A DNA stretch of 64,000 nucleotides from Trypanosoma brucei. Lineage: Eukaryota. The stretch covers positions 416,001 through 480,000 of the forward strand of contig CP000069.1 of assembly GCA_000002445.1 (NCBI GenBank). The letters run 5' to 3'. This document shows, one piece after another, positions 1 to 734 of this stretch (position 1 is its first letter; every line of letters begins with the position of its first letter). Both the position numbers and the translations under genes were made by a program. The notes beneath the pieces were generated by a model. That model did no database searches. It had not been told where the DNA came from and saw only the letters and a program-made list of their open reading frames with translations.

Positions 1-734
1 TGCGGTAAGTCAACATGGTCTGTTATCGCAGCACCGATCTCGTGACCATTCATCTGGCACTGTGGCTGCTCACCATTCCCAGAAACATAGGGATAGCTCG
101 CCTCCGTGAATACGTTTCCACCGTTTGAATTTACTATCCAGTTGAAGGCATTGTCCATCAGCCCACCACCACAGCCAAAATCAATGGTATCACATGACAC
201 TAGCATCTGCTCCGAGAGGGATACGAGAGGATTTCCTGCCACCTGCCACTGCCCTTCGATGTTGCCGATAGTTGAAAAGGCCCAGCACGAGCCGCACTGA
301 CCCTGATCCTTCACTGGGGTCACTGCTCCCTTCTCACGCCAATCCACAGCTGCAGGAGCACGGCCAGTGGTTACGTTCACCGTCTTGCGTAGCCGCTTCT
401 GCGCAGCTGCAAAGTAGGACGCGCCGTTACGGTAGCGTGCCCTGAACTCTTCACGTGTCATATCCGAGAAGGGTGTCACACCAAACGTTGCGTATGGGTT
501 CGCCGCAGCTTGAATCTTCGCCTGCTCCATATTCTCCTCAAAGGCACGGAAGCGGAATGCTTCCTCCTTAGCATCCTTGTACACCTTGCCGTACTTCTTC
601 TTGAACGCAGCAAAACGCATCTCCAATGACTCCTCCACGTGGAGCGACCCGAGTGCGACAGACGCAAGGCACGCTGCCATAGCCAGCAAGACAACGGGGA
701 GACGTACAAAACGCACCATTTCTGTTCGAGGCAT
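1..734 (-). CDS. CATL: Cathepsin L-like cysteine protease (rhodesain/brucipain-type), partial. Covers the N-terminal ~244 aa, and the C-terminal part lies off the window
   Basis: ATG (cat) at 732-734 followed by [22 protein letters not shown]... in frame. Identical to the full copies except for a 12-bp patch at 169-178 that encodes [10 protein letters not shown] rather than [10 protein letters not shown]. Confidence 0.9.

Follow-up and report, generated by a model that had tools for sequence, protein, structure and literature searches.

Two forms of the residue 61-64 loop in the near-identical TbCatL (rhodesain) gene array of Trypanosoma brucei brucei TREU927

Introduction

Rhodesain, also named brucipain or TbCatL, is a validated drug target; its genes are listed in a review as Tb927.6.960-Tb927.6.1060, and the crystallized enzyme (PDB 2P7U, 2P86, 6EX8, 6EXO, 6EXQ, 7AVM) belongs to the same family and locus as the genes analyzed here. 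Docking studies attribute to Phe61 both the pi-stacking and van der Waals interactions with P3 aryl groups and the selectivity of rhodesain inhibitors over human cathepsin L, and inhibitor design exploits this residue in S3 for potency as well as for selectivity. The gene array has been given as '11 identical copies' (Lima et al., 2012) and, as array Tb43 (Tb927.6.1060), has been described as 'invariant' with dN = dS = 0, coding changes being at most rare silent ones (Jackson, 2007). Clustered cathepsin L-like genes are likewise found in Trypanosoma cruzi, where cruzipain subtypes 1-4 differ at residues 61 and 64 (PMC8440672), and in Leishmania mexicana, where CPB forms a tandem array of 19 genes (review). 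Here, a stretch of 64,000 nucleotides from chromosome 6 of Trypanosoma brucei brucei TREU927 (the window), which opens within the TbCatL tandem array at its upstream end, was analyzed, and a 10-bp patch is described that sets the single Phe61/Gly64 copy of this strain apart from copies encoding Ser61/Asn64.

Results

Array organization and the 10-bp patch

The first 8 kb of the window hold TbCatL units arranged head-to-tail with a period of exactly 1761 bp (register starts 1, 1762, 3523, 5284 and 7045), a register established by seed matching and a repeat search. Every unit carries one 449-codon TbCatL open reading frame (ORF) on the minus strand, four of them complete and one cut by the window start, and the units differ at 0-6 sites each when compared without gaps to copy 2, with identity above 99.6% over 1761 bp. 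The features of the array that bear on the patch are the following, CDS denoting coding sequence:

1..734, minus strand: copy A, the first 244 TbCatL codons by translation, ATG at 732-734; the sole Phe61/Gly64 (FGCGGG) copy
169..178, minus strand: the 10-bp patch, variable bases 169, 170, 174, 177 and 178
177-179, 174-176 and 168-170, minus strand: the patch codons in copy A, codon 186 TTT (Phe61), codon 187 GGC (Gly62) and codon 189 GGT (Gly64), respectively
735..1145, minus strand: 411-bp spacer upstream of copy A, comprising the copy B 3' untranslated region and the polypyrimidine/splice-acceptor region of copy A
1146..2495, minus strand: copy B, full TbCatL CDS, 449 amino acids, Ser61/Asn64, 8 Pro, Leu411; identical to P0128 (AAZ11666/67); patch equivalent 1930-1939
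2907..4256, minus strand: copy C, full CDS, Ser61/Asn64, Leu411; same protein as copy B; patch equivalent 3691-3700
4668..6017, minus strand: copy D, full CDS, Ser61/Asn64, Pro411 (4786/4788); identical to P0124 (AAZ11668/69); patch equivalent 5452-5461
6429..7778, minus strand: copy E, full CDS, Ser61/Asn64, Pro411 (6547/6549); P0124 (AAZ11668/69) by isoform order; patch equivalent 7213-7222

Copy E is the first-transcribed copy of the array, and repeat homology extends ~275 bp beyond its ATG on the upstream side, to window position ~8053.

Ungapped comparison of copy A with copy 2 over 1761 bp detected differences at 169, 170, 174, 177 and 178 and at the intergenic position 1011. Within the 734 bp of shared CDS the five patch sites are the sole differences between copy A and copies B-E, as the earlier note on this DNA had stated, and the chance of five random substitutions in 734 bp landing within 10 bp is ~2-5e-7, which bears out its view that the clustering is not random; both the existence of the patch and its non-randomness are thus observed. 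From B-E to A, codon 186 changes from TCA (Ser) to TTT (Phe), codon 187 silently from GGT to GGC, and codon 189 from AAT (Asn) to GGT (Gly). In the following, S-type denotes TCA GGT TGT AAT (Ser61/Asn64) and F-type denotes TTY GGC TGT GGT (Phe61/Gly64). Inspection of the sequence shows a HinfI site (GATTC) to be present in the S-type and lacking in the F-type, and in reads the two patch types can be told apart by the strings GATTCAGGTTGTAATGG and GATTTYGGCTGTGGTGG.

The genes belong to the papain-like family C1A and are of the trypanosomatid cathepsin L type, TbCatL/rhodesain. Copy B matched PF00112 Peptidase_C1 (5e-74), PF08246 I29 propeptide (4e-12) and the C-terminal extension PF12131 DUF3586 (5e-24), the catalytic motifs are intact in mature numbering (QGQCGSCW from residue 19, DHGV at 161, KNSW at 181), and the TbCatL protein of the window showed 100% identity to the TREU927 'cysteine peptidase precursor'. 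The mature enzyme begins with APAAVDW and aligns to papain without indels through residue 67, so that codons 186 and 189 correspond to residues 61 and 64, the papain numbering used in the earlier note. Its further comparison, Ser61 as in cruzipain 1 and Asn64 as in papain, was confirmed on both counts, the papain loop in the PDB reading S60-Y61-G62-C63-N64-G65-G66. The assignment to rhodesain likewise stood: the mature domain of crystallized rhodesain matches the full window copies at 212 of 215 residues and differs only at 61, 64 and 172. At residue 172 all genomic copies have Asn (N-D-N-S) and every aligned PDB rhodesain chain has Ala, presumably the result of a glycosylation-site knockout engineered into the construct used for expression, and not natural variation.

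Isoforms across the TREU927 copies

The TREU927 array, roughly 19 kb in all, was reconstructed beyond the window from GenBank protein accessions alone, exact-protein searches with P0001, P0125 and window copies B and D having matched no contig. The eleven entries AAZ11659-AAZ11669, which fall into one 90% protein cluster, comprise five distinct proteins that differ at residues 19, 186, 189 and 411 and in poly-proline length. FGCGGG was found in AAZ11665 (P0125), while the remaining 10 of the 11 entries carry SGCNGG. In TREU927, then, Ser61/Asn64 is the rule and the crystallized, 'canonical' Phe61/Gly64 is the single exception, which reverses the description of SGCNGG as the variant in the earlier note. 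The isoform order in the window (A F-type; B and C Leu411; D and E Pro411) is the accession order AAZ11665-AAZ11669, from which we infer that copy A is AAZ11665 and corresponds to Tb927.6.1020. This is consistent with a GSK target table that keeps Tb927.6.960 and Tb927.6.1020 as separate precursors, as would be expected if Tb927.6.1020 were the sequence-distinct copy. Since the spacers are identical and the genes lie in one polycistron, expression is predicted to follow copy number, i.e., approximately 1 F to 10 S in TREU927.

Further variation was seen in the C-terminal part of the protein. A second small cluster marks copies D and E, in which codons 410-411 change from GGC CTC to GGT CCC, i.e., Leu411Pro and, next to it, a silent change, both within the C-terminal extension. 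The poly-proline hinge that joins this extension to the catalytic domain (window ~1447-1470 and register equivalents; also proteins P0001, P0123 and P0127) is variable in length, with 8 Pro in window copies B-E, 9 in AAZ11659-61/64/65 and 9-10 in T. b. gambiense. As regards the detection of the two forms as protein, residues 18-181 of mature TbCatL contain neither Lys nor Arg, and because residues 61 and 64 therefore sit inside a single tryptic peptide of 164 residues, trypsin-based proteomics cannot separate the isoforms.

Variability and pocket placement of residues 61 and 64

Among 119 homologues, residue 61 ranked 9th of 215 mature positions by variability. Within Trypanosoma the pair 61/64 occurs as S/N, L/A, Y/R, F/E, N/D, S/S, F/S, F/G and S/G, and G62, C63, G65 and G66 show little or no variation; the S-type loop sequence is the commonest among the kinetoplastid-type cathepsin L matches. 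The earlier note had placed both residues on the wall of the S3/S2 pockets. For residue 61 the S3 part of this assignment is in line with the cruzipain literature, where residue 61 lines S3, whereas residue 64 lines S1 there, the subtypes differing by S61F and S64G (PMC8440672). All PDB rhodesain chains in our alignments (2P7U and identical chains, 6EX8, 7AVM) read FGCGGG, and the structural and docking studies that were found all deal with the Phe61/Gly64 form.

Occurrence in other strains

Four assemblies were compared, namely TREU927, T. b. gambiense DAL972, T. b. equiperdum GCA_003543875.1, which we take to be strain IVM-t1, and T. equiperdum GCA_001457755.2, presumably strain OVI; three of them were retrieved by exact-protein match. 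In T. b. equiperdum GCA_003543875.1, which has eight units of which the last is truncated, 8 of 8 patch sites read TTC GGC TGT GGT, as did 6 of 6 in T. b. gambiense DAL972, while the array of T. equiperdum GCA_001457755.2 is collapsed to one 1743-bp contig with TCA GGT TGT AAT. FGCGGG was also found in T. evansi ALJ92831 and in the PDB-derived T. b. rhodesiense entry (P0134). Both forms therefore span lineages, the S-type occurring in TREU927 and T. equiperdum GCA_001457755.2 and the F-type in TREU927, T. b. gambiense, T. b. rhodesiense (PDB), T. evansi and T. b. equiperdum GCA_003543875.1. According to a 2026 paper, the OVI type of T. equiperdum goes back to East African T. brucei, and both TREU927 and OVI stand separate from the T. 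evansi clades; on this phylogeny the S-type may be a lineage-associated haplotype.

The Phe61 codon is TTT in the TREU927 F copy and TTC in all 14 F-type copies of T. b. equiperdum GCA_003543875.1 and T. b. gambiense, so the TTT-bearing copy is a third patch haplotype, and this difference in codon disfavors contamination as its source. The terminal unit of GCA_003543875.1 (~12567-13109 of the retrieved locus) lacks 1 bp at CDS nucleotide 618, is called only as a 180-amino acid fragment and is followed by a diverging downstream flank; it resembles a copy in decay at the 3' end of the array.

A diverged island in a homogenized array

An alignment of array copies comprised 15 complete units and the partial copy A from the four assemblies, gapped T. 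b. gambiense units having been left out after misaligning. It showed variable CDS sites outside the patch at 46, 201, 853, 1023, 1173 and 1230/1232, besides poly-Pro length. Across the four assemblies the patch was the only multi-site difference in the 1350 bp of CDS, and no CDS site outside it separated S-type from F-type. Genome-wide, coding sequences of T. b. brucei and T. b. gambiense are 99.2% identical, i.e., they diverge by 0.8%, at which ~10.7 differences would be expected in the 1340 bp outside the patch; fixed differences numbered 0 (P ~2e-5), and half of the ten patch positions differ between the types. An array homogenized to identity within and between strains thus holds one small, strongly diverged island.

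The combinations of patch type with Leu411Pro were used for a four-gamete test, and all four are present: S-Leu411 in copies B and C and in P0121, S-Pro411 in copies D and E and in P0001, F-Leu411 in P0122, P0123 and P0127, and F-Pro411 in P0125. Pro411 was confined to TREU927 among the assemblies compared and occurs there on both S-type and F-type copies. Since all four combinations exist, the patch has been shuffled by recombination or gene conversion. Mosaicism is also seen in the S-type T. equiperdum unit, which has 201A/853C/1173A like TREU927 copy E and 1359G like the F-type arrays. The single TREU927 F copy has TREU927-type background on both sides of the patch, and the spacer 735..1145 is TREU927-type at both strain-informative sites (~1137 and ~1072), with one copy-variable site at 1011.

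Going outward from the patch, the nearest informative sites are ~894 bp upstream (window ~1072) and, at codon 411 as read from P0125, 666 bp downstream, and because the intervening sequence is identical in all copies the tract is bounded only between 10 bp and ~1.56 kb. The gene conversion suggested in the earlier note is supported as far as recombination or conversion between copies is concerned, whereas its short tract does not follow from these bounds, although a 10-bp conversion tract is possible. No local donor for either patch form was detected in the 64-kb window (21-mers with up to 3 mismatches; exact 10-12-mers), 9-mer matches being at chance level only. GC-biased conversion was considered as a driver and rejected: of the 5 changes from S to F, 3-4 go weak-to-strong, yet such conversion leaves the dominance of the S-type in TREU927 unexplained.

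Genomic context

The window has 21 ORFs of at least 250 amino acids, and the minus strand carries them all, which fits one trypanosomatid polycistron. A 931-amino acid ORF without a Pfam match adjoins the array on its upstream side (8852-11647, minus strand), and T. b. gambiense has a predicted gene of 904 amino acids at the syntenic position. The following further genes were recognized by Pfam:

12110-13000, minus strand: glyoxalase II-like protein
13988-15214, minus strand: proteasome AAA ATPase
19316-22639, minus strand: ubiquitin hydrolase
27904-29937, minus strand: Alg9-like mannosyltransferase
31837-34062, minus strand: LRR protein
34522-35826, minus strand: Aph-1-like protein
42393-43286, minus strand: Plus-3/RING protein
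51933-53429, minus strand: DAP3
53738-54586, minus strand: proteasome subunit
55788-56897, minus strand: IF-2B family protein
56929-59631, minus strand: DNAAF5-like protein

Perfect intergenic (TA)n/(AT)n microsatellites of 12-15 repeats were present at 8349-8375, 15806-15830 and 46937-46966; Tandem Repeats Finder, with a longest period of 500, reported only such (TA)n runs.

Discussion

The data are probably best explained by a two-form polymorphism in the 61-64 loop of TbCatL that segregates across the T. brucei group and is shuffled among concertedly evolving copies. Following this, we propose that gene conversion and unequal crossing-over would hold coding and spacer sequence near-identical within and between strains, and that the same processes could also have moved the patch, or its flanks, from copy to copy, which in TREU927 might have left a single F-type copy with ten S-type copies around it and a background that is otherwise of the TREU927 type. 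In the loop D60-x-G62-C63-x-G65-G66, residues 61 and 64 would be the only evolvable ones, so that change at the protein level would be confined to them. The exchange of Phe61 for Ser would strip S3 of its aromatic wall and that of Gly64 for Asn would add a side chain at the S1 rim, giving the S-type a predicted S3 that is more open, polar and cruzain-like and an S1 rim resembling that of papain. Differences between the isoforms would accordingly be predicted mainly in P3 and perhaps in P1 preference, and in the affinity for inhibitors that stack on Phe61 or carry P3 aromatic groups; the persistence of both forms may reflect selection on residues 61 and 64.

Several points weigh against this explanation. 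Where the F copy sits, and how many such copies there are, could be a choice of the assembly, since a 1.76-kb repeat present in 11 copies was put together from Sanger reads, and isoform ratios outside TREU927 are uncertain given four assemblies of which one is collapsed and one gapped. Moreover, the explanation leaves the origin of five changes within 10 bp unaccounted for. A dN/dS test is precluded by the small number of codons, namely two. As to the ancestral form, S/N is the commonest among the homologues surveyed and F/G is more widespread in the sampled Trypanozoon. Finally, none of the crystallographic cruzain ligands contacts Ser61, so that any effect of this residue may vary with the ligand.

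The first of these points leads to the alternative that fares best, i.e., that both types are present in TREU927 DNA and the F unit, an allelic variant from the other homologue or one present at another position or in another number, was slotted in during assembly. Units that are above 99.6% identical over 1761 bp exceed the length of Sanger reads, the assembly of such arrays has been called problematic (Lima et al., 2012), and the gapped T. b. gambiense array and the single 1743-bp contig of one T. equiperdum assembly illustrate the difficulty. Against this, the F copy combines the TREU927-specific Pro411 with 9 Pro (P0125), TREU927-type spacer markers and the unique TTT codon, and is therefore TREU927 sequence and not contamination; two isoforms in one genome would stand even if the unit were misplaced. 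A placement artefact is thus a real but doubtful possibility.

Somewhat less credit is given to a neutral relic, in which one complex (multi-nucleotide or templated) mutation produced the patch and both forms were kept by drift and stochastic concerted evolution with no enzyme difference mattering to the parasite; on balance we consider it unlikely. It would be in line with the homogenization of the rest of the unit whatever the patch type, array dynamics alone being able to carry a neutral patch, with the fixation of most sampled arrays for one form, as drift plus conversion predict, and with the missing contact of Ser61 to co-crystallized cruzain ligands mentioned above. Contrarily, a random cluster would have had to hit both variable loop positions with two double-base codon changes while sparing Gly62 and Cys63, the cruzipain subtypes differ at the same two positions, frequent conversion should erase a neutral 10-bp difference from a mixed array, and the 64-kb window holds no template of at least 10 nt for either form.

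A stronger version of the proposed polymorphism is improbable in our view, namely that it is functional and long-maintained and tunes the S3/S1 specificity of TbCatL to host substrates (internalised APOL1/TLF, immunoglobulin, PAR-activating targets), the array acting as an isoform dosage dial set by gene conversion, with lineages differing in specificity and in sensitivity to P3-aromatic inhibitors. CATL has been linked to human-serum resistance, which is compatible with such tuning. The lineage contrast invoked here is the fixation of Phe61/Gly64 in the sampled human-infective subspecies as opposed to the dominance of Ser61/Asn64 in the East-African lineage of TREU927 and T. equiperdum. The argument is weakened by T. 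evansi and T. b. equiperdum GCA_003543875.1, animal pathogens that normally do not infect humans, since they are also Phe/Gly, and for the same reason a link between the F-type and human infectivity was judged weak.

Ectopic micro-conversion, with a non-allelic gene at another genomic site such as the cathepsin B gene TbCatB (Tb927.6.560) as donor, appears very unlikely. Templated repair produces just such a pattern, in which a block encoding a functional loop is replaced and a silent change lies within it, but the 64-kb window offers no donor, and the cathepsin B loop, which typically reads D-G-C-N-G-G, would supply neither Ser61 nor Phe61 and thus counts against TbCatB. Sequencing error in the partial copy A, which might be suspected as the patch occurs once in the window and near its edge, is effectively refuted, given that two other assemblies show 4 of the 5 bases in 14 copies, that the encoded FGCGGG is that of the crystallized protein and that the full gene is deposited as AAZ11665.

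The proposed polymorphism concerns a known enzyme in which a two-form difference has been overlooked, and is of modest interest, not being surprising in kind; TbCatL sequences have been public since 2005 and the enzyme is well known, so that, judged from sequence, the significance would also be modest. For designers of rhodesain inhibitors it matters that the reference strain mostly encodes the Ser61/Asn64 enzyme, and structure-activity relationships obtained with recombinant rhodesain may consequently not carry over to every T. brucei or T. equiperdum strain. For students of concerted evolution the array offers a small, clean case of a coding difference persisting in an array otherwise homogenized to identity. 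No paper on the Ser61/Asn64 form was found in the literature library that was searched; the older studies of Mottram (1989) and Caffrey (2001) may compare sequences.

Comparison with known systems

Copy A is identical to crystallized rhodesain at residues 61 and 64, whereas the full copies of the window carry Ser61/Asn64 instead. Among the L. mexicana isoenzymes, CPB2.8 and CPB3 reportedly differ at residues 60, 61 and 64, in the same loop. In L. mexicana CPB, kinetic differences between copies have been measured and some copies are stage-regulated; in TbCatL, by contrast, the identical spacers argue against copy-specific regulation, and the isoforms are known here from sequence. Few residue changes reportedly alter the substrate preference of L. 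mexicana CPB isoenzymes, going by the titles of Mottram's 1997 and Juliano's 2004 papers. Cruzipain 2 has F61/G64 as does rhodesain, and gene conversion has been discussed as a source of variability for cruzipain (PMC8440672). In contrast to the two T. brucei forms, which differ only in the patch, the cruzipain subtypes differ at further subsite residues (67, 68, 70, 138, 161, 208 and others) and over the whole sequence. With the invariant arrays of Jackson (2007), the TbCatL array shares head-to-tail, near-identical units including spacers, with more than 99.5% identity within the species as compared to 71% to the best T. congolense match. Unlike that class, it has non-synonymous differences, at codons 186, 189 and 411 in the window and at residue 19 and in the poly-Pro stretch elsewhere.

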